Shown piece by piece: positions 249 to 31,968 of a stretch of 64,000 nucleotides of DNA (position 1 is its first letter; each line of letters opens with the position of its first letter). Position numbers and translations under genes: made by a program. The stretch is taken from positions 25,448 to 89,447 of the forward strand of contig CP060228.1 in NCBI GenBank assembly GCA_023898565.1, written 5' to 3'. The notes below the pieces were generated by a model. That model did no database searches. It was given only the letters and a program-made list of their open reading frames with translations, and had not been told where the DNA came from. The stretch comes from Candidatus Nomurabacteria bacterium. Its GTDB lineage: Bacteria > Patescibacteriota > Minisyncoccia > Phycocordibacterales > UBA918.

Positions 249-3020
249 TTAGAGTCCAAATCCTGGCGGTGGCGGCACGGGTGGCACCGGTTTCTTATAG
301 CGCGCCTGGATTTCCGCCTCAATCTCTGCCCGTGGCCGGCCCCAGCGCTCGTAGCTTTCTGCAATCATGCGAGCCACTTTGGTTTGGTCAGCTTCATGTG
401 GTGGCATGGTCGCGATACTAAATGGCTTCGCTGGCGTACCATTTGCCAAGACGCGCATAAAGGCATTGCGATTAGGCACGTTCATCAAATCATTCGCCGA
501 GAAGACCGAACCAAACTGCGGCTCAAGCACCTGCGCATCTTCGTTGCCGACGCGAAACGCAGCCATTGAACCCACGTTTCCAAACACCGCATCTTTAATA
601 ACTGGGTCGAGCTGCGCAATAAACTGGTGCGCAACCGTAAGTCCCAACTTGTACTTACGCGCCTCTGAGAGAATTGAGGCAATGGCAGGAGTGGAGATAT
701 TTTGGAATTCGTCGATATGTAGATAGAACGGCGGAAATGACATGGTCGGGTCGTCTACACGAGAGAGTGCCGCCATCAAAATCTTACCAACAAAAATCAT
801 ACCGATAAGGTTGGCGTTGATTTCGCCCAAGCGACCTTTTGATAGGTTTACCAAAAGAATCTTGCGCTCATCCATGAGCTGGCGGAAATTAAATGAGCTG
901 GTCTGCTGACCAATAATTGGTCGAATGTAGTCGTTGGCGGTAAGCGGATCAATCTTTGAGACAATGTACGGCACAATATTTTCAAGCGATGCTTCACCGC
1001 CAGCTTTACCGGCAATCTCACGCCAGAATTGAATCACGACTGGATTAGTCGCTTTCTCAAGCTTCTTCCGACGAAACTGCGCATCAGCCATCACCCGACC
1101 AATATCCATGAGCGTATTGCCGCTCTCTGGATCTTCCATTACGAGCATAGTTGCATTACGGAAGTACTGCTCGAACATTGGCCCCATCGACTCGGGATTG
1201 GCCCCATACAACTTCTGGAAAATAGACAAAAGCTCGTTCACGATAAACGTCTTCTGTTCAGGCTTCGTCACATCGTACTCGAGCATATTAAGCCCAATTA
1301 CCCGATCCATATATGACGGATCGAAGTAAATAACATCTTTCTCACGCTCTGGCGGCACCGCTCCTAACACGTCCACAATGTCCGTACCATGCGGATCAAT
1401 CATACACACACCAGCACCAGACTGGATGTCTTGGTTGATGAGATTTTTAAGGAACACCGACTTACCAGTACCCGTCTGCCCAATCACATAGAAGTGACGC
1501 ATGCGGTCGAGCTCGGCCATGTATGCTGGCTTTTCAGCTCCCTGATGTTTATTGATACCAAGCAGTGTACCCTCGCTCGGCATTTCTGTCTGCATTGGTG
1601 CAGTCTTAGCATATGACTGTTTAAACTGCGACGCAGCCACCACGCCGTCGGCCGGAAAATGCAGCATGGTTGAAAGCTCCTCTACCGATAAAGGCACGAT
1701 AGTTTTGGCGGACAACTGACGGAATGAAAACGCTCGCTGTGCATGCCGTAGATGCACTCCTTTTTGTGGAATGAATGAAAATTGATTGCTATCTTCTCGA
1801 TCGAATTGATTAAAAGAAGCCTGTAATTCACGCATAATTTGCTCGGCTCGCGAAAATTCTGAGGCTGATACTGCCATTCGTATATTTGCCTCAACAACTG
1901 GCGTCTCCAACTTCTTCTTAAACTTCTCAAGTTCGACCGTGTCAATTTCCTTCGGCTGCTCAGGTTCATTTGGATTTTTCTTTGACGCAAAAAACATGTC
2001 ACTCACCGATGCCAGCAAATCCCCTGCTACCGTACTGCGCGCAATTGCCTCTTTTGGCTTCGTCCCTTTTTCGACTGCTCGCACTATCCCATCAAACTGT
2101 TTACGATAATCCTTACTTGGGTACCGCAAGACAAACTGCAGTGCAGCACCACCACCTTCACGTTCAATTTTTGAAAACGCATTCATTACAACCTCAAGTG
2201 GATCTGTCGCAAAGACGTCGTGCGTTTTTAGTGGATAGATTGGATGCTTCTTCAGCACCACATCTGAAATCAGCGTATGCCCACCGTCAACGTAGATATT
2301 GTAATCATGCGGCTGTTCAGTAAGCACGGCTTGCGGAAACAGGGACAGCGTTTGTTTTTCGAACAAGGTCTTAAATTCATTTGGAACTGACACGTAGAAA
2401 ATAATGTCATCGCTCTTATCAGCCACTGCAATTTCAATCACAAAGTGATTACCTTCCTTCGCTGAGCCAATCGTACGGAGCCCGGCAAATAGCTGCTGCA
2501 TCTTTCCGACCAGCTCATTGAGATGAGATGCTTGACCATCGGTACTTTTTTGCGGCGGCATGGTCACTTCGTACAGAGTCATGTGGAGCACGTGCCACGG
2601 CGGTACACCTTCCTTAAGATCAGCCAGCTGCACACCACTCTTAATCTGCTCTATCAGCTGTCGATGCACTTCATCAATAACATACGCATTGGAAACTTTT
2701 TCGAGCACCGTAAGCGCATTACGGACCCCTCGCTCTGCCGCCAACTGCATGATTTCTGTGACCGGATCATGAGCAGTGTCAACCGTACTAACTGACTGTG
2801 CCAGCTCTTCACCCTTGAGCTCGTAGGCTGGATCAAGAATAACTTTTGGCGTAAAGCTCACATATTCTCGCAACTGCTCGCGGCCGATTGTTTCAACGTC
2901 AGCATCGTCAACCTCAGGCGTACGCTCCAAAAGCACACGCTCACGCTCGGCAATCTGTTGACGCAAAAAGGCAATCTCCTCTTCTGGAGACGAAAACTGC
3001 TGCGGAATCCCTTCCTTCAT
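249..3020 (-). CDS. VirD4/TraG-TraD-family type IV secretion coupling protein-like P-loop ATPase. Start moved to the ATG at 3020, because a hairpin terminator lies inside the longer ORF.
   Basis: Walker A VIGQTGTGKSVFLKNL, Walker B-like FYLHIDEFQN, and a long C-terminal region typical of T4SS coupling proteins (TraG-D_C-like). The 3071-3104 hairpin plus U-run sits inside the annotated 5' extension. Confidence 0.55.
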   Translation of the reverse strand: MKEGIPQQFSSPEEEIAFLRQQIAERERVLLERTPEVDDADVETIGREQLREYVSFTPKVILDPAYELKGEELAQSVSTVDTAHDPVTEIMQLAAERGVRNALTVLEKVSNAYVIDEVHRQLIEQIKSGVQLADLKEGVPPWHVLHMTLYEVTMPPQKSTDGQASHLNELVGKMQQLFAGLRTIGSAKEGNHFVIEIAVADKSDDIIFYVSVPNEFKTLFEKQTLSLFPQAVLTEQPHDYNIYVDGGHTLISDVVLKKHPIYPLKTHDVFATDPLEVVMNAFSKIEREGGGAALQFVLRYPSKDYRKQFDGIVRAVEKGTKPKEAIARSTVAGDLLASVSDMFFASKKNPNEPEQPKEIDTVELEKFKKKLETPVVEANIRMAVSASEFSRAEQIMRELQASFNQFDREDSNQFSFIPQKGVHLRHAQRAFSFRQLSAKTIVPLSVEELSTMLHFPADGVVAASQFKQSYAKTAPMQTEMPSEGTLLGINKHQGAEKPAYMAELDRMRHFYVIGQTGTGKSVFLKNLINQDIQSGAGVCMIDPHGTDIVDVLGAVPPEREKDVIYFDPSYMDRVIGLNMLEYDVTKPEQKTFIVNELLSIFQKLYGANPESMGPMFEQYFRNATMLVMEDPESGNTLMDIGRVMADAQFRRKKLEKATNPVVIQFWREIAGKAGGEASLENIVPYIVSKIDPLTANDYIRPIIGQQTSSFNFRQLMDERKILLVNLSKGRLGEINANLIGMIFVGKILMAALSRVDDPTMSFPPFYLHIDEFQNISTPAIASILSEARKYKLGLTVAHQFIAQLDPVIKDAVFGNVGSMAAFRVGNEDAQVLEPQFGSVFSANDLMNVPNRNAFMRVLANGTPAKPFSIATMPPHEADQTKVARMIAESYERWGRPRAEIEAEIQARYKKPVPPVPPPPGFGL

Positions 3021-3070
3021 ATCTCTATATAGTAACGCACTTATGCAGATAAGTAGTCCACTTAATCCCC

Positions 3071-3104
3071 GCAATGAAAATAGCCGGACCCTGAAAGGGT
3101 CCGG
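3071..3104 (-). terminator. rho-independent terminator downstream of mreB
   Basis: Stem ccggaccc / gggtccgg with loop tgaaa, followed on the minus strand by TATTTTCATT. Confidence 0.5.
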
Positions 3105-3153
3105 CATAAAGACACTTTTCAAAAATTTAATGCGTTGCCTCCATGATAGTACG

Positions 3154-3274: not shown

Positions 3275-4288
3275 TTATTTTTTCGCCAAGACTGCACGCT
3301 TGTAGACATCGAGATGCTCCAGCGCCACTCCTGTTCCCTTAGCAACACAAAAGAGTGCTTGGTCCGCCACTTGCGCCTTTACACCAGTACGCCGGCGAAT
3401 CAATTCTGGAAAGTTACGCAGCTGCGAAGTGCCCCCAGTCATGATAATGCCGCCATCGATAATATCAGCAGCGAGTTCCGGTGGCGTATTTTGAAACACA
3501 TCCTTAATTGCCTTAATCATTTCCCGCAGTTCCTTGCCAATCGCTTTTACAATCTCATTACTACGCACTTCAGTAGTGCGCGGCAAGCCAGACACCATGT
3601 CACGCCCTTTAATCTCCATCGTGAGCTCTTCTTCAAGCGGCAAAGCTGAACCAACCGTAATTTTAATCTCTTCAGCCGTCTTTTCACCGATAGAGAGATT
3701 GCGACTTTTTTTGACATAATCAATAATCGCCGCATCAATGCGATTCCCAGCACATTTCACTGAGTTGGCTGCTACGATACCACCAAGCGAAATCACTGCC
3801 GCATCAATCGTCCCGCCACCAATGTCGACAATCATGTGTCCTTGCGGCTCATAAATTGGCACACCAGCACCAATCGCAGCCAAAATTGGCTCCTTCACCA
3901 CAAACGCATTACGCGCACCGGCTTTCATCGCCGCTTCCACCACTGCTCGGCGCTCGGTCGAAGTTACCCCGGCCGGCACCGACACCATCACGTCAGGACG
4001 AAGCAGATTGTACTTACTCATTGACTTACGCAAGAAATAGCGAAGCATTGCCTCAGTCACGCGATAATCAGCAATCACACCGTCTTTCATCGGTCGATAG
4101 GCTTTAATACTCTCCGGCGTTCGTCCGATCATAAGCTTAGCTTCGGTGCCAACCGCCAATACTTTATTATCGTCCGACACTGCTACCACCGATGGTTCGT
4201 TGAGCACAATCCCCTGACCAGGCACAAACACCAAAATGCTCGTGGTACCAAGATCAATGCCAATCTTTGGGGTAAGGCTGCCAAACAT
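3275..4288 (-). CDS. mreB: Rod shape-determining actin homologue MreB
   Basis: N-terminus GIDLGTTSILVF, DIGGGT motif, 337 aa, full-length actin fold. Confidence 0.9.
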   Translation of the reverse strand: MFGSLTPKIGIDLGTTSILVFVPGQGIVLNEPSVVAVSDDNKVLAVGTEAKLMIGRTPESIKAYRPMKDGVIADYRVTEAMLRYFLRKSMSKYNLLRPDVMVSVPAGVTSTERRAVVEAAMKAGARNAFVVKEPILAAIGAGVPIYEPQGHMIVDIGGGTIDAAVISLGGIVAANSVKCAGNRIDAAIIDYVKKSRNLSIGEKTAEEIKITVGSALPLEEELTMEIKGRDMVSGLPRTTEVRSNEIVKAIGKELREMIKAIKDVFQNTPPELAADIIDGGIIMTGGTSQLRNFPELIRRRTGVKAQVADQALFCVAKGTGVALEHLDVYKRAVLAKK

Positions 4289-4320
4289 AGTGGGTCAATA
4301 GTACCAGTCTTATGTAAAAA

Positions 4321-4352
4321 GAAAAGGCGCGCCGCGAAGCGGCGCGCCTTTT
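4321..4352. other. GC-rich hairpin (ggcgcgccgc gaa gcggcgcgcc) flanked by an A-run and a T-run, located in the divergent mreB / yciB-like intergenic region and within the mreB leader
   Basis: Palindrome seen in the sequence. Terminator-like, but placed between divergent gene starts. Confidence 0.4.
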
Positions 4353-4406
4353 CTTTTTACCTGCTAATCTAAATCTAGCATTCGTAGTACACTAGTAGTA
4401 TTCTAC

Positions 4407-5069
4407 TTGCTCATGTTGCGTCACGCCCGATTATTCAAACTTCTCATTCTGGACATGCTCATTATTGAGTTTGGGCCTCTGCTGGTTTTTTTTGCGCTAT
4501 ACCATTTCCTCTGTAGCTTTGGCAAAGCTGCTCTCGGTCTGGCCGGCACCACCTTAGTTACCCTCTACATTTCAAAACTAGTAAATCAACGCATTCCGTG
4601 GTTTGTAGTCATTTCAGGAGGCATCACTGCCGGCAGTGCAATCTTAAGCTACTGGTTTAAAACGCCCGATATTCTTATATTTACGGACACTGTTTTTTAT
4701 TTCCTATTTGCCGGGCTACTCGCCAGCGGCGTATTTCACAAGCGACAAGTATTTGCGACCTTTTTTGGCCACGTATTTTGCATCAGTGAAGCTGGCTGGA
4801 AGATTCTCGAACGACGTTTTTTAGGGATTTTTATCGCAGCTGGTATTGCCAATGAACTCGTCCGACATCTTGGAAGCGTACACGACTGGGTTGTTTTTAA
4901 ACAGTGGCTCGTTGTTGTTTTCTTACTTTTTGGCTTCTATCAACTGCGCGTTACTAGCTCACACCGTACTGAGGAAGCAGACCGTTTTGGATTACGTAGC
5001 CAAGAGTTCCGCGAACGCATTGTGATTGAAGTAGACGACAAAACACATCCACACTCTAAGTGTGATTAA
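4407..5069 (+). CDS. Intracellular septation protein A family (YciB/IspZ-like) polytopic membrane protein
   Basis: Pattern matches E. coli YciB (FLPLVVFFAFY vs FGPLLVFFALY; ALFAGALL vs FLFAGLLA; conserved C-terminal TM pair). Confidence 0.6.
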   Translation: MLMLRHARLFKLLILDMLIIEFGPLLVFFALYHFLCSFGKAALGLAGTTLVTLYISKLVNQRIPWFVVISGGITAGSAILSYWFKTPDILIFTDTVFYFLFAGLLASGVFHKRQVFATFFGHVFCISEAGWKILERRFLGIFIAAGIANELVRHLGSVHDWVVFKQWLVVVFLLFGFYQLRVTSSHRTEEADRFGLRSQEFRERIVIEVDDKTHPHSKCD

Positions 5070-5097
5070 TATAGCATATATGCTATATTAGCTTCAT

Positions 5098-6597
5098 ATG
5101 CAACATATCGGAACCCGTATCGCAGACCTGCGCGAAACTTTAGGACTTACCCAGACAGACTTAGCCAAAAAGCTCAAAACCACCCAAAGCGCCATCGCCC
5201 GTATTGAAAGCGGCAAGCAAAATGTGAGTGCCGATATGCTGAAGCGCATCAGCGCAGCCCTAGGGAAAAACCTCATTACCCTCTCCCCTGGCACGATGAA
5301 TATTAAAATCAACGGCGGCAAAAAGCTCACCGGCACCATCGAAACCAACACTTCAAAAAACGGCGCCGTCGGGCTTTTGTGTGCTTCTTTGCTCAACAAA
5401 GGCACCACCACCCTACACCGCATGCCGCGCATTGAAGAAGTACACCGTCTGATTGAAGTGCTTGAGAGTATCGGAGTTAAAGTTGACTGGAGCGGCAGCA
5501 CCGTCACTATTACCCCACCGAAGAAAATCGACCTCAAGAAAATCGACCGTGTTGCCGCCGAGCGCACCCGCAGTATTGTAATGTTCATCGGCCCCCTCAT
5601 TCACCAACTTCAATCATTCTCGCTACCACAATCTGGCGGCTGCAAGCTTGGCAGTCGTACCGTAAAACCTCACTTTTTTGCCCTTGAACACTTTGGTGTC
5701 AATATCGACACTACTGCCACCAGCTTTGACGTGACTGTAAAACCGAAGCAACCAAAAGAAATTATTCTCTATGAATCGGGCGACACCGTGACCGAAAACG
5801 CCCTCTTTGCCGCCGCCGGGAAAACGGGCACCACTACCATTAAGTACGCCACCGCCAACTACATGGTACAGGAAGTGTGCACCTTCCTTCGCTTGCTTGG
5901 CGTGCAGATTGAAGGTCACGGCACCACCACCCTGACGGTTACTGGCGTTGCAGATATCAACCAGAATATTGAATACACCCTCTCAGAAGACCCGACCGAT
6001 AGTATGTTTTTCTTGGCGGCAGCTATTACCACCAATTCCTCCATCACTATCACTCGCTGTCCGATTGAATTTCTTGAACTCGAACTTTTGAAGCTTGAAA
6101 AAATGGGCTTTAAGTACACCAAGTCAAAGCCATACCTCAGCCACAACGGCAGCACCAAGCTGGTCGACATTACGACCAAACCATCTAAACTCGTGGCTCT
6201 GCATGAAAAGATTCACCCAGCAGTGTATCCTGGCCTAAATATCGACAACCTCCCTTTCTTTGCCGTGATTGCTACGCAGGCGGCTGGCCAGACACTGATT
6301 CATGACTGGGTGTATGAGAAACGAGCTATTTACTTCACTGAACTCGACAAACTCGGCGCCGATACCGTACTGGCTGATCCACACCGCATCTTTATTACCG
6401 GACCAACCAAACTCCGCGCTACTGAGCTCGTGTGCCCACCAGCACTTCGCCCAGCCACTATTCTCCTCATTGCCATGCTTGGCGCTGAAGGTGAATCTGT
6501 CCTCAGAAATATCTACAGCATCAATCGTGGCTACGAAAAATTAGTTGACCGCCTCGCTTCGCTCGGCGCCGATGTTTCGTATCTCGATGAATTTTAG
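5098..6597 (+). CDS. murA: UDP-N-acetylglucosamine 1-carboxyvinyltransferase (MurA) with an N-terminal XRE-type helix-turn-helix domain fused in frame
   Basis: N-terminal 60 aa LGLTQTDLAKKLKTTQSAIARIESGK (HTH_3). It is followed by the MurA/EPSP-synthase fold, with the active-site loop QSGGCKLGSRTVKPHF (Cys present) and C-terminal INRGYEKLVDRL. Confidence 0.8.
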   Translation: MQHIGTRIADLRETLGLTQTDLAKKLKTTQSAIARIESGKQNVSADMLKRISAALGKNLITLSPGTMNIKINGGKKLTGTIETNTSKNGAVGLLCASLLNKGTTTLHRMPRIEEVHRLIEVLESIGVKVDWSGSTVTITPPKKIDLKKIDRVAAERTRSIVMFIGPLIHQLQSFSLPQSGGCKLGSRTVKPHFFALEHFGVNIDTTATSFDVTVKPKQPKEIILYESGDTVTENALFAAAGKTGTTTIKYATANYMVQEVCTFLRLLGVQIEGHGTTTLTVTGVADINQNIEYTLSEDPTDSMFFLAAAITTNSSITITRCPIEFLELELLKLEKMGFKYTKSKPYLSHNGSTKLVDITTKPSKLVALHEKIHPAVYPGLNIDNLPFFAVIATQAAGQTLIHDWVYEKRAIYFTELDKLGADTVLADPHRIFITGPTKLRATELVCPPALRPATILLIAMLGAEGESVLRNIYSINRGYEKLVDRLASLGADVSYLDEF

Positions 6598-6618
6598 GAG
6601 AAATCTATAACGAGCCAC

Positions 6619-6658
6619 AACGGCGGATTTTTGGCAAGCCTGCCAAAAATCCGCCGTT
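6619..6658 (+). terminator. Long perfect hairpin (18-bp stem) after murA. A TATAAT box at 6662-6667 follows, 11 nt before the priA ATG.
   Basis: aacggcggatttttggca / tgccaaaaatccgccgtt inverted repeat. Confidence 0.5.
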
Positions 6659-6678
6659 TGCTATAATGGCCAGCACGT

Positions 6679-8571
6679 ATGTTTGTAGTTCAAGTTACTC
6701 CCTTAATTCGCGGCACCCAGCTTGAATCACTCTCTTATTTCTCAAAAATCGACTATCCAGCCGGTGCCTTTCTCCAAGTCCCCATCCGCGGCAAAAATCA
6801 AACCGCCATCGTTACGGAATCAAAGCCCGTCAGTAGCACCAAGACCGCCCTCAAGGCGGCGACGTTTTCTCTTCGCAAACTTCCCAACCAACCAGACCCA
6901 GTCGTGATTCCTGACAGCATCCGGAACACTTGCGAAGCACTCAGTACTCGATATCCGGCGTCTGCTGGCGCGTTGTTATTTTCACTTCTACCACCAGATG
7001 TACGTAATGGCAGTCGCTTGTATCCCAAAACTGACCACATCAAACACAACGAAGAGACCACCCCACAGCTCCTCACCGCCCGCACTGACGACCGCTTCTT
7101 AGCCTACCAAGGCTTTATTCGTAGCACCTTCGCACACAAAGGTTCGATTATGTTTGTCGTGCCTACCGCTGTAGATGTGGAAGTTGCTAAAGACCTACTT
7201 TCAAACGGCATCAAAGACCGACTGGTCGTTTTCTCACCCAGCCAAACCAAGCGTCAGAGAGATGCGTCATACGACAAGCTAGCTGACACCACCTGCGCCA
7301 AGCTCATTATTACCACCCCATCACATGCATACCTGGAGCGAGCCGACCTCCTAACCATCATTGTTGAACAATCTGCCAGCGGGCACTATGTCAGCCGCCA
7401 GCGGCCATACCTCGATCATCGTGATGCGCTCATCGCCTACGCCAAAGTCTCAGGACGTTCGATACTCCTTGGCGACACTGTCCCACGCACCGAAGACGAG
7501 GCACGTCGTCGTGACGAAATCTATCTAACCTACGGTGAAGAAGCGAAGCGGATTGCCTTTTCTGCCCCACTAACCATCGTGTCACAACATGATAAACCAA
7601 AGCCCGAACAAGCCTTCAAACTCTTCTCTAAGGAGCTTGAGATTAGCGTGACGCGTGCGCTTGAAGCGCGAGGCCACGTCTTTTTCTATGCCGCGCGGCG
7701 TGGCCTCGCGCCGGTAGTCGCCTGCATCGACTGTGGCCACATCTTCCGCTGCCCAGACTCAAACACTCCCTACTCACTCATGCGCACTGAGAAAAACGGC
7801 GAGGAACAACGCTGGTTTGTATCAAGCACCTCTGGTCGCCGCGTTCGCGCGGCGGACGTCTGCGAGCAATGCGGCTCCTGGCGCCTGCGCGAACGCGGCA
7901 TCGGCATCCAACACGTCTATGACGAATGGAAAGAGCTCATGCCTGACTGCGACGTCACCATCATGGACAACAACACCGCTCCCAATGCCAAGGCCGCGAG
8001 CAAGATTGCTAAAGAATTTTTTGAAAAGAAGTCTGGCGTGCTTATTGGCACACAAGTAGCCCTGCCGTTTATTACCGCCGGCGTGGACGTTAGCGCGATT
8101 ATTTCGCTTGATGCTGCGCGCACCATTCCGACCTGGCGCGCTGACGAAGCACTCTTTCGCCTACTCCTTCGGCTGCGTGAATGCACCAGCAAAGAAGTAC
8201 TGATTCAAACCCGTACCGAACCAGACCACCTCCTCATGTACGCCACCCGCGGCGCTGTCGAGCGTTTTTATGATGACGAGATTGCACTCCGGCAGATGCT
8301 TCAGTACCCGCCGTACAGTACGTTTATTTTGCTCACCTGGATTGTAAACAACACTTCACTAGAAAGCATGAGCCAGCCGATTGTCGAGCAACTCGCTGCC
8401 TTTGACGTGCAGTACTACAACAACCCAACCACCACCGCCCAAAAAATCGAACGGCACGGCCTCATTCGCATTCCTAAATCCGATACCAAAACCTACGCCG
8501 AGCTACTCCCGAAACTACGCGCTTTGCCACCATACGTAAAAGTAGAAATCAATCCAGAACGTATTGTCTAG
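6679..8571 (+). CDS. priA: Primosomal protein N' (PriA)-like, with degenerate helicase ATPase motifs
   Basis: PriA-type Cys cluster CIDCGHIFRCP...CEQCGS. C-terminal LIGTQ...LDAARTIPTWRADEALFRLLLRL. Walker A GSGKT is absent (region reads FAHKGSIMFVVPT) and the DEAH box is replaced by IIVEQS. Confidence 0.65.
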   Translation: MFVVQVTPLIRGTQLESLSYFSKIDYPAGAFLQVPIRGKNQTAIVTESKPVSSTKTALKAATFSLRKLPNQPDPVVIPDSIRNTCEALSTRYPASAGALLFSLLPPDVRNGSRLYPKTDHIKHNEETTPQLLTARTDDRFLAYQGFIRSTFAHKGSIMFVVPTAVDVEVAKDLLSNGIKDRLVVFSPSQTKRQRDASYDKLADTTCAKLIITTPSHAYLERADLLTIIVEQSASGHYVSRQRPYLDHRDALIAYAKVSGRSILLGDTVPRTEDEARRRDEIYLTYGEEAKRIAFSAPLTIVSQHDKPKPEQAFKLFSKELEISVTRALEARGHVFFYAARRGLAPVVACIDCGHIFRCPDSNTPYSLMRTEKNGEEQRWFVSSTSGRRVRAADVCEQCGSWRLRERGIGIQHVYDEWKELMPDCDVTIMDNNTAPNAKAASKIAKEFFEKKSGVLIGTQVALPFITAGVDVSAIISLDAARTIPTWRADEALFRLLLRLRECTSKEVLIQTRTEPDHLLMYATRGAVERFYDDEIALRQMLQYPPYSTFILLTWIVNNTSLESMSQPIVEQLAAFDVQYYNNPTTTAQKIERHGLIRIPKSDTKTYAELLPKLRALPPYVKVEINPERIV

Positions 8572-8642
8572 CTTGCTTTTACAGCGCAGCGTGCTTAAAT
8601 ACCGCCCAGCAAGTCACTTGTACCATTCTCAAGGAGCCACTA

Positions 8643-9036
8643 ATGTCTACCAGCATTAATGCCAGCATGATAGAAGATGCGATTGCAACTTTTGTCCACC
8701 TGTTTAACAGAGGAGAGTATGAAAAAGCTTCATGGATATACGCCGAAGATGCCGTACTCATCGAAGACGGGTTGCTGAACCGCGGCAGAGCGCAAGTACT
8801 GGGGGGGGGCGGCACAGGAGCAAAACAATTTCATAAAAACGCACGAGGTACGCCTATGCCAAATCAATGAAGCTGGCAATCTTGCACTGGTTTGGTGCGA
8901 TTATGAGATCATTCACCAAACTGGTGACGGACCTTGTGTAACCTACAGTGGATGCTCGACTCTCAATTTTTCAATGACGGAAACAGGTCTCTTGATTATA
9001 GCTGATACCGGGATGATCCACGGTCAAAGCAGCTGA
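8643..9036 (+). pseudogene. NTF2-like (SnoaL/DUF4440-like) protein gene interrupted by a +1 frameshift at a G9 homopolymer (8801-8809)
   Basis: Frame 0 reads MSTSINASMIEDAIATFVHLFNRGEYEKASWIYAEDAVLIEDG...VLGGG. The +1 frame continues AQEQNNF...ALVWCDYEIIHQTGDGPCVTYSGCSTLNFSMTETGLLIIADTGMIHGQSS* to 9036. Deleting one G restores a single ~130-aa ORF. Confidence 0.55.
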
Positions 9037-9098
9037 TGAGCGCGGCGCCCAAAGGGCGCCGCTTTCCTTTTTCTTCGTATATTTGTATAGTACAAACC

Positions 9099-9638
9099 AT
9101 GAATAAGTTAGTCGCCCAAAACCACCCAGCTCTCCATAGTATTGCTGAGGAAATCACTCCCGAAGAATTTGCTGACGGCTCAGTCGCCAAGATTCTCGCT
9201 GGCATGCGCAAAGCTATCAAAACCTACGATGTAGACGGCTACGCAGCTGTTGCAATTGCAGCACCACAAGTCGGTGTCGCCAAGCGGATGTTTTTGGTAG
9301 AAGATCAAAACCAAGACCGTGATGAAGCCTTACCTACCGTCATCGCAATTAACCCGCGGATTGTAAAATACTCTAAGAAAGTCCATGAAGTGGGTGAAGG
9401 TTGTCTCTCCGTACCGAATAAATACGGCGTGGTTGAGCGCCACAAAAATGTCGTACTAGAAGCGCTCGACGAGCATGGTCAGCCATTTTCTCGCGGGGCC
9501 GGCGGCCTCTTGGCACAAATTTTCCAACACGAATGCGATCATCTCGACGGCACACTCTTTATCGACCGCGCTGTAGAGACCTGGCATAAAGACGACCGCC
9601 CAGCTGGTATAACCGAAGCCGAAGATGAACAAAATTAA
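9099..9638 (+). CDS. def: Peptide deformylase
   Basis: Motifs GVAIAAPQ, EGCLSVP, QHECDHLDG. Start chosen at MNKLVAQ. Confidence 0.9.
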   Translation: MNKLVAQNHPALHSIAEEITPEEFADGSVAKILAGMRKAIKTYDVDGYAAVAIAAPQVGVAKRMFLVEDQNQDRDEALPTVIAINPRIVKYSKKVHEVGEGCLSVPNKYGVVERHKNVVLEALDEHGQPFSRGAGGLLAQIFQHECDHLDGTLFIDRAVETWHKDDRPAGITEAEDEQN

Positions 9639-10497
9639 ATTTGCCTATTTTGGTGGTGAACCACTTGGCGTGCCAGTCCTTGAAGCGCTTAAGGCGGCCG
9701 ATTTACTCCCATCACTCATTGTTTGCAACCCCGATCGGCCGAGCGGTCGCGGTCACATGCTCACACCGCCCCCAGTCAAAGTCTGGGCGGAAGAAAATGG
9801 GATCGAAGTCTTTCAACCAACCAACTACAAGGATGACGTCGCGAAATCACGCCTAGAAGCAGAAGACTGGGATGTCTTTGTGGTGGTAGCCTATAATTTC
9901 ATTTTGCCGGAATGGTTTTTGCACCTCCCAAAGCACCAAACTCTCAATGTACACCCCTCACTTTTACCAAAGCTGCGTGGCGCCAGTCCGATTCGCACGG
10001 CAATTTTAAAAGATTTGCGTGAAGATATTGGTGTGACAGTAATGTTGCTCGACAGTGAGATGGATCATGGGCCAATTCTCGACCAGGAGCAGGTCTATAT
10101 AGAGGACGAGAATTGGCCCCTCTCAGGACCTAACCTCGACCAACTTCTGGCCACCACTGGCGGCGAACTCTTGGCCGAAATTATTCCTGCCTGGGTAGCT
10201 GGCGAACTCTCTCCACAAGAACAAGACCACGAACTCGCCACCTACTGCTCACGCTTTGAAAAAGGTCAGAATGAACTTACTATAGACCCGACGCGACTGC
10301 CTGCTGGAGATAAAGCTTGGAACATGTGGCTAAAAATCAACGCCTTTACCGGTATCGGCGACACTTTCTTCATGCACGAAGGCAAGCGCATCAAAATCAA
10401 AGCAGCCCGCTTCGAGAACAATTCCCTCCAGATTCTTCGAGTCATTCCTGAAGGCAAGAAAGAAATAGATTTTAGTGAGTATTTGAAACAAATATAA
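9625..10497 (+). CDS. fmt: Methionyl-tRNA formyltransferase
   Basis: N-terminal Rossmann region IKFAYFGGEPLGVPVLEAL, NVHPSLLPKLRGASPI. Overlaps the end of def by 14 nt in the classic def-fmt arrangement. Confidence 0.9.
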   Translation: MNKIKFAYFGGEPLGVPVLEALKAADLLPSLIVCNPDRPSGRGHMLTPPPVKVWAEENGIEVFQPTNYKDDVAKSRLEAEDWDVFVVVAYNFILPEWFLHLPKHQTLNVHPSLLPKLRGASPIRTAILKDLREDIGVTVMLLDSEMDHGPILDQEQVYIEDENWPLSGPNLDQLLATTGGELLAEIIPAWVAGELSPQEQDHELATYCSRFEKGQNELTIDPTRLPAGDKAWNMWLKINAFTGIGDTFFMHEGKRIKIKAARFENNSLQILRVIPEGKKEIDFSEYLKQI

Positions 10498-28619: not shown

Positions 28620-28836
28620 ATTAAAAAGTGACTAGTTTACTCTGGCAGCAGGCACAACAAAGCCCGCTACTAAGGAAAGCTCCTTACGGAAACTTCTACC
28701 AGCGTTTCCACTGGTAACGATAGACACGCCCTTAATAACGGGTTCTCTTGTGTCTATCGTTTTTCGACCATGCCGCTATCTCACGACTGCGGGTTAGGTC
28801 ATTGAAATATTTAGTTGTTCGAGTATTGTATCAGAA

Positions 28837-30351: not shown

Positions 30352-31935
30352 ATGGAAAAAGCAGTAATCTACGCACGAGTATCATCAAAAGAACAAGAAG
30401 AAACTGGCTACTCCTTACCAGCCCAGCTGGACCTACTTCGTAAATACGCTGAGAAAAATGGTTTTAAGGTCTGCAAAGAGTTTTCTATTGCTGAGTCTGC
30501 GACGAGTCAAAGCGGTCGTAAGACCTTCCAAGCAATGCTTGCGTACACCAACCAGAAGAAAATACACACGATCATTTGTGAAAAGATCGACCGACTCACT
30601 AGGACCCCTAAAGATGCAGGTGTAATTGACGACTGGGTGCGCTCAACTGAAACCCGGACCGTCCACTTTGCCAAAGAAGGCTTCATTCTCAGTAAGCAAA
30701 CCAAAGCGCACGAGAACCTCGTTTGGAACATGAAAGTAGCTATCGCTAAGTTCTACACCGACAATCTATCTGAGGAGGTTCGTAAAGGTCAGGCTGCCAA
30801 GATTGCTGCCGGCCACCTCCCCACCAAACCACCGCTTGGATACCGAACCGTCGGGGAGCAAGGTAAGAAGGTGCACGTTATTGACGACAACACAGCCCCG
30901 CTGGTTAAGAAAATGTTTGAGATGTATGCCACCGGGAACTTCTCTGTCGTCGAACTAACAAAACGAATTAATCTGATAGGTCTCCGTAATCGAAACGGGA
31001 ACAAGCTGAGCAAGACACGAGTTCATGACTTTCTCTCAGACCCATTCTATTACGGAGACATGCGTTGGAACGACAAGATATTCAAAGGAGCTCATGAACC
31101 ACTGATCACTCTGGAGCTCTTCAACAAGGTTCAGGAGAAGCTAGGTCGAGGTACTGCTAGCCCATACTACCGAACTCATCCACTGCTATACAAAGCGAAG
31201 GTCACTTGTGCCACTTGCGGCTTCTTGGTGAGTTGGGAAAGACAGAAAGGACACGTCTATGGCTCTTGTAAGCATTGTAAGAGCCCTCTAGGAGCATCAT
31301 CCAAGTACTTACGAGAAGAAGAGTTAGACAAGAAGATCATCGAGAAAGTGCTAAAAGTAGCACCTAAGAACCAAAAGGTGCTCGACATCCTCAACCAAGC
31401 GTTAAAAGAGGACGCTGAGGAGGAAATACATGCTTACGAAACCAGTAAACGCCAGCTGGAAGAAAACCTACGCCGTGGCGACCTAAGAGTCGACACAGCT
31501 TACACGGACCGCTTAGATGGACGTATCGGCACAGAACGATATGACGGTATTAAAGCTGAATGGGATGCAGAAAGAAAAGCGATCTTGAACGAACTGACTC
31601 GTCTTAGCAACGATAAGTCAAAGTATTACGACGCTGGTTTCTCAATCCATGTCTTGGCTACAAAAACCCGAGAGATCTACGAGAGTCAACACGTTACAGA
31701 CGATGATCGTCGCCTGCTGTTAAGTTACGCCTTCAACAAAGTCACACTAGAAAGAGGCAACATCGAAGTTGAGTACACTCCAGCGTTCGAATATCTGCAA
31801 AAATGGGTACCTGCAGTAAACCAGAGTTTCGAACTTGCAAATAGTGGCTCTAATGAAAGACAAAAGGTGCCTTTCGGCACCTCTCATCCTACTTTGCTCC
31901 GCGGGCAGGATTCGAACCTGCGACCAATCGGTTAA
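30352..31935 (+). CDS. Large serine recombinase (resolvase/invertase N-terminal catalytic domain plus recombinase and zinc-ribbon domains). The 3' end overlaps tRNA-Asn.
   Basis: AVIYARVSSKEQ catalytic Ser motif. Central recombinase domain. CATCG...CKHC zinc ribbon. Coiled-coil tail. Confidence 0.85.
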   Translation: MEKAVIYARVSSKEQEETGYSLPAQLDLLRKYAEKNGFKVCKEFSIAESATSQSGRKTFQAMLAYTNQKKIHTIICEKIDRLTRTPKDAGVIDDWVRSTETRTVHFAKEGFILSKQTKAHENLVWNMKVAIAKFYTDNLSEEVRKGQAAKIAAGHLPTKPPLGYRTVGEQGKKVHVIDDNTAPLVKKMFEMYATGNFSVVELTKRINLIGLRNRNGNKLSKTRVHDFLSDPFYYGDMRWNDKIFKGAHEPLITLELFNKVQEKLGRGTASPYYRTHPLLYKAKVTCATCGFLVSWERQKGHVYGSCKHCKSPLGASSKYLREEELDKKIIEKVLKVAPKNQKVLDILNQALKEDAEEEIHAYETSKRQLEENLRRGDLRVDTAYTDRLDGRIGTERYDGIKAEWDAERKAILNELTRLSNDKSKYYDAGFSIHVLATKTREIYESQHVTDDDRRLLLSYAFNKVTLERGNIEVEYTPAFEYLQKWVPAVNQSFELANSGSNERQKVPFGTSHPTLLRGQDSNLRPIG

Positions 31936-31968
31936 CAGCCGACTGCTCTACCGCTGAGCTACCGCGGA
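31897..31968 (-). tRNA. tRNA-Asn (anticodon GTT)
   Basis: Minus-sense TCCGCGG TA GCTC AGCGGTA GAGC A GTCGG CTGTTAA CCGAT TGGTC GCAGG TTCGAAT CCTGC CCGCGGA G cloverleaf. CCA is not encoded. Confidence 0.85.

Follow-up and report, generated by a model that had tools for sequence, protein, structure and literature searches.

The locus described here lies in a stretch of 64,000 nucleotides (64 kb; referred to throughout as the window, with positions counted from its first letter) of contig CP060228.1 from a Candidatus Nomurabacteria bacterium, a member of the Patescibacteria, or candidate phyla radiation (CPR). These bacteria are ultra-small and nearly all uncultured; their genomes are tiny and encode few regulators. 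As seen in Table 1, the gene of interest encodes MurA (UDP-N-acetylglucosamine 1-carboxyvinyltransferase) joined in a single reading frame to an N-terminal helix-turn-helix (HTH) domain of the XRE/Cro-C1 type. MurA is the gatekeeper of peptidoglycan synthesis and the target of fosfomycin. The fusion protein is termed HTH-MurA below, and its gene HTH-murA. Directly upstream of the gene, a perfect palindrome, proposed as an operator, overlaps a promoter-like -10 element, and comparisons among relatives suggest that this palindrome and the HTH domain belong together.

Table 1. Positions of HTH-murA, its upstream palindrome, two relatives with degenerate active sites, and neighbouring genes
Feature	DNA	Position	Strand	Remarks
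HTH-MurA gene	window	5098..6597	+	499 aa plus stop, ATG start, no internal stop; from the list of open reading frames and Pfam/NCBIfam
XRE/Cro-C1 type HTH_3 domain	window	5119..5274	+	residues 8-59, Pfam HTH_3
Recognition helix QSAIARIE	window	5185-5208	+	residues 30-37 of HTH-MurA
Linker ITLSPGTM, including Met67	window	5275..5298	+	residues 60-67, between HTH and MurA domain
MurA domain	window	5299..6582	+	residues 68-495, NCBIfam NF006873
Catalytic Cys182 codon	window	5641-5643	+	Cys loop GGCKLGSRTVKPH
Perfect 24-bp palindrome TAATATAGCATATATGCTATATTA, proposed operator	window	5067..5090	.	arms 5067-5078 / 5079-5090, 100% complementary, no gap
Conserved 16-bp core ATAGCATATATGCTAT	window	5071-5086	.	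half-sites ATAGC / GCTAT, 11 bp centre to centre
Extended -10-like element TGcTATATT	window	5081..5089	+	right arm of the palindrome, 8 nt before ATG
P0131	L081	6001-7503		pseudo-MurA with HTH
P0133	L083	3498-5003		pseudo-MurA with HTH
mreB	window	3275-4288	-	two genes upstream of HTH-murA
IspA/YciB-like septation protein gene	window	4407-5069	+	between mreB and HTH-murA; co-directional with HTH-murA
PriA gene	window	6679-8571		downstream neighbour of HTH-murA

An earlier note on this DNA had described an HTH_3 domain in the first ~60 residues followed, in frame and with no intervening stop, by a full-length MurA with its catalytic Cys loop, and had proposed separate profile matches to the two domains as a check. 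This description was borne out. On the same uninterrupted polypeptide, Pfam placed an HTH_3 match (55.6 bits, cut-off 23, E 5.5e-15) at residues 8-59 and an EPSP_synthase match (E 1.4e-44) at residues 72-486, and residues 1-66 taken alone scored 59.3 bits against HTH_3. The HTH motif that the note had quoted, LGLTQTDLAKKLKTTQSAIARIESGK, is present. In a sequence search of the PDB, the HTH matched the N-terminal DNA-binding domain of the 434 repressor (1per, E 6.9e-5), and the NCBIfam model TIGR03070, which describes Y4mF/HipB-coupled antitoxins, matched at 2e-11. An AlphaFold2 (AF2) model built on 62 diverse fusions (mean pLDDT 87, pTM 0.82) places helices at residues 2-14, 19-25, 30-37 and 45-55, with 19-25 and 30-37 forming the helix-turn-helix pair; by gathering score as well as by secondary structure, the N-terminus is an HTH_3 domain of the XRE/Cro-C1 type. 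Residues T18, Q19, T28, Q30, S31, A32, R35, E37, G39, Q41 and N42 are invariant among the 62 fusions. The linker falls below a pLDDT of 50 at residues 60-64, and the model thus depicts the HTH as a separately folded unit, followed by a low-confidence linker and, beyond it, a confident MurA body.

The remainder of the protein has the features expected of a MurA enzyme. The NCBIfam subfamily model NF006873 scored 310.6 bits against a cut-off of 297, while the strict equivalog model TIGR01072 was not reached (292.8 against 392.7) because the MurA clade of the Patescibacteria is divergent. The best PDB sequence match was the MurA structure 5u4h (E 6e-48), with the K-N, R, GGC..G.R, D, R and LR motifs aligned. 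K87, N88, R158, C182, R187, D383, R409 and R451 are all intact and, judged by motif, correspond to K22, N23, R91, C115, R120, D305, R371 and R397 of the Escherichia coli enzyme. Among 337 full-length relatives surveyed for catalytic residues, the eight-residue signature KNRCRDRR is common to 237 HTH-fused and 42 unfused proteins. Moreover, the top 45 PDB matches of the AF2 model in Foldseek were all MurA or the enolpyruvyl transferase NikO, at E values down to 8e-38, with TM scores of 0.88-0.91 for the MurA structures, and the model shows the two-domain fold of EPSP synthase and MurA. With all eight catalytic residues in place, the MurA domain is predicted to be active as an enzyme.

The fusion is widely conserved. 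The 120 closest protein clusters listed (82-100% identity) have lengths of 499-536 aa, and every one carries both Pfam domains; their source names are Candidatus Nomurabacteria, Kaiserbacteria or Parcubacteria. Close relatives share 82-92% identity in the MurA domain. Contigs taken from one genome per species yielded 80 murA loci at 56-85% identity, and ~70 of these align from query residue 1-4. The alignment with MurA orthologues that had been suggested as a check therefore shows the HTH extension to be conserved, the exceptions being four HTH-less or HTH-decayed loci (L065, L073, L074 and L075) and a few genes cut by the contig end. In an exhaustive search of representatives at 50% identity, fusions were found down to ~32% identity. 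At E < 1e-20, a profile of fusion representatives retrieved 1850 proteins, the best 120 of which are all ~500-540 aa with HTH and EPSP_synthase. The mean consensus fraction per column is 0.70 in the HTH and 0.76 in MurA, and both domains are under purifying selection, the HTH strongly so. Within the Patescibacteria sampled, the fused protein is the common form of MurA, and sequence databases name these proteins simply MurA. No description of the fusion or of its operator was found in the full-text literature, which is no proof of absence; as far as could be found, the architecture is common in Patescibacteria but functionally undescribed. The earlier judgement that such a fusion is unusual therefore stands outside the Patescibacteria and fails within the sampled group.

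The palindrome upstream of the gene begins at the TAA stop codon (5067-5069) of the IspA/YciB-like gene, ends 8 nt before the ATG of HTH-murA, and occurs once in the window. Every HTH-murA locus for which upstream DNA is available, 79 in number and including the more distant groups L081 and L083-L086, carries the core, ATA[G/T]CATATATG[C/A]TAT, at a distance of 0-145 nt before the start. Elsewhere in 604 kb of relatives' DNA, only ~10 weak matches with three mismatches were found. Across the 79 loci, core positions A1, T2, C5, T11, G12, A15 and T16 are invariant; the centre varies more than the arms, and the three central base pairs are complementary in 60-69 of the loci. In a position matrix of the same loci, T11 G12 n T14 A15 T16 A17 n T19 are conserved at 89-100%. 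The right arm can be seen to run on into TGnTATAnT, the consensus of an extended -10, and conservation is much weaker at the mirror positions on the left side of the core. A 16-bp symmetric site thus appears to be superimposed on a -10 box.

The position of this box bears on how the gene is translated. The ATG follows the 16-mer by 9-13 nt, and the -10 hexamer by 6-10 nt, in 46 of the 79 loci. The earlier note had reported an RBS-like (ribosome-binding-site-like) sequence before the upstream ATG, but none is there: the preceding 16 nt, GCTATATTAGCTTCAT, contain no purine-rich or Shine-Dalgarno element, and a -10-like box stands 8 nt away instead. A Shine-Dalgarno sequence is likewise absent in 78 of the 79 HTH-murA loci. 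Together with the spacing between box and ATG, this absence suggests that the mRNA is leaderless or nearly so, with its transcription start inferred from the same geometry, and a leaderless geometry would explain an upstream ATG that lacks a ribosome-binding site.

Two other roles for the palindrome were considered and rejected. As a terminator of the upstream gene it would be expected to carry a T-tract, which it does not; in many relatives the gene before it runs divergently, and the terminator scan of the + strand was empty there. Nor is it a general promoter motif, being unique in the window and found as one site per ~7.5-kb locus, always at murA. An Rfam search did not find an RNA family at the HTH-murA locus. 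More than one palindrome copy was seen at some loci. L047 has two sites upstream of HTH-murA (at 2835 and 2920), L166 has copies at 498 and 531, 33 bp apart, and L164 has copies at 959 and 2013. Such paired copies may be cooperative or tandem operators.

Where the HTH is lost, the palindrome is lost with it. At L065, L074 and L075, MurA starts directly at the MurA domain and there is no palindrome; a separate HTH gene was not found at any of these three loci, so the alternative raised in the earlier note, that the HTH is a small gene of its own in relatives, found no support. At L073, all that is left of the HTH at murA (about 1850-1975) is a piece of its C-terminal part, out of frame and matching from query residue 41, and upstream of it there is no palindrome, only GCTATA, which resembles a right half-site. 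Here an HTH-operator module seems to be in the course of decaying. The nearest relatives of L065, of L074 and of the L073/L075 pair all bear the HTH; over the MurA domain their identities are 80%, 71% and 75% respectively. There have therefore been at least three independent losses of the HTH, all of them without a palindrome.

The sequences of the two elements also change together. Operator positions 4 and 13 are G:C in 54 of the 79 loci and T:A in 16, the arms changing as a pair. Residue 29 immediately precedes the recognition helix, in the stretch T-[T/S]-Q-S. ATAGC sites go with T at this residue, and ATATC or ATCTC sites with S; the counts of 53/7/1/18 give a Fisher probability of 3e-11 in a statistic that ignores phylogeny. 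Additionally, across the 79 loci the left arm varies no more than the right, although it serves no promoter role.

The same palindrome is found at genes that have nothing to do with MurA. A metagenome-wide scan for the exact 18-mer TATAGCATATATGCTATA returned at least 80 loci (L087-L166). Among the 80 listed, 33 have, within 900 nt, a gene reading away that carries the recognition-helix motif [TSK][TKS]QS.[IVL][AS]R[ILMV]E.G, and the motif occurs 0 times in the 783 kb of background from the same loci. Among the matches listed, these 33 comprise 4 HTH-murA genes (L114, L118, L135 and L143) and 29 small antitoxin-like XRE-HTH genes, which stand alone or, often, follow a toxin gene of the Gp49/HigB type (Pfam PF05973 and HTH_3). 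In all 33, again among the matches listed, the position equivalent to residue 29 is T or K and never S, as expected for ATAGC sites. Over residues 12-59, identity between these small HTHs and that of MurA reaches 58%. The 18-mer lies ~7-25 nt upstream of toxin-antitoxin operons and solo small HTH genes (for example at ~1928 in L150, ~3661 in L133 and ~819 in L087), on contigs whose GC content varies widely, from 22 to 68%. These loci look like a widespread leaderless promoter-operator cassette, and the HTH, operator and leaderless promoter of HTH-murA are most likely one autoregulatory module co-opted from an antitoxin-type regulator.

Taken together, it is considered probable that HTH-MurA is both an enzyme and an autorepressor, acting through the palindrome on its own leaderless promoter. 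The HTH, presumably as a dimer, would bind ATAGC-N6-GCTAT over the extended -10 box of its own gene. When HTH-MurA is abundant, it would occupy the operator and block RNA polymerase, and the committed step of peptidoglycan synthesis would in this way be placed under negative autoregulation by the enzyme itself. In an ancestor of these Patescibacteria, murA would have acquired by fusion an antitoxin-type cassette of HTH, operator and leaderless promoter. DNA binding, dimerisation, repression, the start of transcription and any modulation by UDP-N-acetylglucosamine (UDP-GlcNAc), UDP-N-acetylmuramic acid (UDP-MurNAc) or phosphoenolpyruvate (PEP) are all predicted from sequence comparison. Of the two functional guesses in the earlier note, autoregulation and moonlighting, it is autoregulation that the comparisons favour, and strongly, through a conserved palindrome that would act as an operator on the gene's own promoter.

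Several observations weigh against this proposal. Binding to a palindrome needs a dimer, yet MurA enzymes are usually described as monomers, and the AF2 model contains only the four HTH helices, with no obvious dimerisation helix. The covariation of residue 29 with operator type is confounded by shared ancestry within the MurA family. A strict sigma-70 scan that requires a -35 box returned no promoter at the locus, where no good -35 box is present; the promoter assignment is consequently an inference from the extended -10 pattern and its conservation. The conservation of the right arm is partly explained by promoter function alone. Finally, the palindrome is not confined to HTHs of this type: 47 of the 80 listed 18-mer loci have no recognisable cognate HTH motif nearby; some of these are on short contigs, and some may be chance AT-rich matches in a very large database.

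Some of these same points would be accounted for if the palindrome were only a promoter, in the form of a symmetric and possibly bidirectional extended -10, or an RNA or DNA hairpin, with the HTH regulating genes elsewhere or surviving as a passive relic. The right arm does match TGnTATAnT, and in some relatives mreB or murA is divergent from the same short spacer, where a symmetric -10 could serve both genes; the 47 loci without such an HTH nearby are also in favour, and the region can be folded into a hairpin of -11.5 kcal/mol. However, a promoter that is not an operator leaves a good deal unaccounted for. The left arm is perfect in the window even though the upstream ispA is co-directional, and it is invariant in 79 loci whatever the orientation of the neighbouring gene. 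The motif is not found at other promoters in the 604 kb of relatives' DNA, the palindrome vanishes together with the HTH three times, and a single type of recognition helix accompanies it in unrelated operons (33 against 0). A hairpin, for its part, would not be transcribed if the -10 reading is right. An explanation by promoter or hairpin is therefore regarded as unlikely, and an operator for the HTH as the better account of the palindrome.

The neighbourhood of the gene raises another question. Gene order is kept between the window (3275-10497) and L084 (2877-9533), with a divergent mreB followed by HTH-murA, a PriA-like gene, def and fmt; relative to this order, the IspA/YciB-like gene of the window is inserted between mreB and murA. 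In L084, L085, L118 and L143, the palindrome lies between HTH-murA and a directly divergent mreB, and the two genes may be co-regulated there. The cytoplasmic domain of RodZ is an XRE-like HTH that binds MreB, and given that mreB is the second gene upstream of HTH-murA in the window, and its immediate divergent neighbour in relatives, the HTH of HTH-MurA could be thought of as a RodZ-like module for protein-protein contact or localisation, tethering MurA to the MreB cytoskeleton. An HTH of the RodZ type that binds MreB was rejected on the HTH_25 score, which at 16.4 bits is below the cut-off of 24.6 (against 59.3 bits for HTH_3), and on the lack of a transmembrane segment after the HTH, MurA following directly. 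Moreover, Q30, S31, R35, Q41 and N42, which lie in or just after the recognition helix, are invariant, the domain matches the 434 repressor, and tethering would leave the evidence for an operator without explanation. A cytoskeletal role is thus very improbable, and DNA binding remains the preferred function of the HTH.

Several relatives have kept the HTH and given up the active site. In about a dozen fused proteins (P0131, P0133, P0139, P0140, P0145, P0228, P0229, P0271-P0273, P0371 and P0389), the Cys loop is lost and the equivalents of K22, R91, R120 and R397 are replaced, and the HTH is highly conserved. The genomic context was read for two of them, P0131 (in L081) and P0133 (in L083). The gene for P0131 is divergent from, and 60 bp away from, an HTH-less canonical murA followed by murB; the GGC.LG.R loop is intact in the product of this murA, which shares only 22-23% identity with the pseudo-MurA. 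After P0131 come ddl and a Mur ligase gene, and an exact palindrome, ATATCATATATGATAT, lies in the L081 spacer between a TTGACA box and the -10 region. P0133 clusters with a canonical murA and two Mur ligase genes, and the palindrome runs into its ATG. Proteins of this type are probably dedicated regulators derived from the bifunctional form. That these pseudo-enzymes keep both HTH and operator supports a regulatory role of the HTH across the family, and their gene clusters point to cell-wall precursor genes as the regulated set.

These relatives also lend some substance to the view that the protein in the window is itself chiefly a regulator with a MurA-like sensor, catalysis being left to another murA in the genome: both degenerate proteins whose context was read adjoin a canonical murA, and the present view of the genome extends over 64 kb. 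This is nonetheless slightly less probable still than a RodZ-like role. The eight catalytic residues are intact here and in the 237 fused relatives, the MurA domain keeps its 82-92% identity among close relatives, and the NCBIfam subfamily model is above its cut-off. Neither a second murA nor an HTH paralogue was found within the 64-kb window. A protein that is enzyme and regulator at once is therefore preferred to a regulator alone.

The remaining suspicion, voiced in the earlier note, that a start-codon or assembly artefact hides a MurA that begins at Met67, an in-frame Met at the domain boundary, with the HTH separate or untranslated, was ruled out: hundreds of assemblies made independently carry the same continuous frame, only 24 of 80 fused relatives have Met at position 67 while the others have V, L or I, the letters before the Met67 ATG (CTCTCCCCTGGCACG) hold no ribosome-binding site, the position of the promoter-like element suits the upstream ATG, and the HTH is under strong purifying selection. 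Being conserved in this way, the fusion is, on comparative grounds, real.

A further possibility, offered tentatively and with less confidence than autorepression as such, is that the MurA domain works as a ligand sensor that sets the affinity of the HTH for its operator, so that transcription of the committed step tracks the precursor pool. MurA undergoes a large change from an open to a closed form on binding UDP-GlcNAc, and it binds UDP-MurNAc tightly. In some lineages, the same operator would then also control mreB, or the murA-murB or ddl-mur cluster, and the catalytically dead paralogues would be an evolutionary end-point at which the enzyme has turned into a dedicated sensor-regulator. 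If this were true, it would be a main transcriptional control of wall synthesis in the regulator-poor Patescibacteria.

Apart from control by the precursor pool, the proposed autorepression would have several implications of its own. The arrangement appears to be standard in a large part of the Patescibacteria/CPR, and the site ATAGC-N6-GCTAT is a concrete regulatory site for testing in this group; HTH-MurA and its operator can be tested in vitro or in E. coli without culture of the host. A promoter-operator-HTH cassette of toxin-antitoxin type would have been co-opted to control a housekeeping gene. Additionally, the family would provide a natural series for the evolution of trigger enzymes, from enzyme to enzyme-regulator to pseudo-enzyme regulator.

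A few other features of the window were recorded. A 957-aa open reading frame at 249-3122 (-), adjoining mreB, has weak similarity to type IV coupling proteins of the VirD4/TraD kind (E 1e-13, far below the cut-offs of the families). A 168-aa antisense frame at 5094-5600 (-) lies mostly inside HTH-murA and is most likely spurious. An Rfam LOOT RNA (RF03000) is found over its full model length at 28676-28800 (-), with 69.9 bits against a gathering score of 46.4, and a tRNA is located at 31897-31968 (-).

Compared with canonical MurA of E. coli and E. cloacae (PDB 1uae and 3kqj), HTH-MurA has the same two-domain inside-out alpha/beta barrel, Cys loop and key residues, and differs in the N-terminal HTH and linker of 67 residues; it is ~24-28% identical to the solved MurA structures. 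MurA is subject to feedback by UDP-MurNAc. Known control of the enzyme is essentially post-translational, as in the proteolysis by ClpCP/ReoM in Firmicutes (PMC8959180), and is not known to involve a fused DNA-binding domain. If the present proposal is true, cell-wall synthesis would be regulated in a new and minimal manner, by a MurA that bears a repressor domain and is controlled through an operator of its own.

In its HTH, the protein is closest to the XRE antitoxins of the Gp49/HigB type (HigA-like). They share the HTH subtype, the motif T[T/K]QS.I[A/S]R.E.G, an identical 18-bp palindrome and a spacing of about 7-11 nt from palindrome to start. In HTH-MurA, however, the HTH is joined to a housekeeping enzyme and not to a toxin-neutralising tail. 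No toxin gene stands beside HTH-murA in the window, where the neighbours are the IspA/YciB-like and PriA genes; HTH-MurA is therefore not an antitoxin.

In its overall plan, HTH-MurA resembles the classic trigger enzyme BirA, the biotin-protein ligase and repressor of the bio operon, in which an N-terminal HTH is likewise fused to an enzyme of its own pathway, the palindromic operator overlaps a promoter, and a single protein couples the status of the pathway to transcription. BirA differs in its winged HTH and unrelated enzyme fold, and in repressing a biosynthetic operon rather than specifically its own gene. DNA binding by BirA depends on dimerisation driven by ligand; that HTH-MurA might dimerise in the same manner is conjecture. 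PutA and NadR are also bifunctional enzymes with a DNA-binding domain that regulate themselves or their own pathway. PutA differs in having a ribbon-helix-helix domain and NadR in combining an HTH with other enzyme domains, and neither belongs to cell-wall synthesis. As in these trigger enzymes, an enzyme and a DNA-binding domain are found in one polypeptide, and a putative operator is found at the promoter of the protein's own gene, a promoter recognised by its consensus only. By analogy, HTH-MurA would thus be functionally like the trigger enzymes BirA, PutA and NadR, but not homologous to them.

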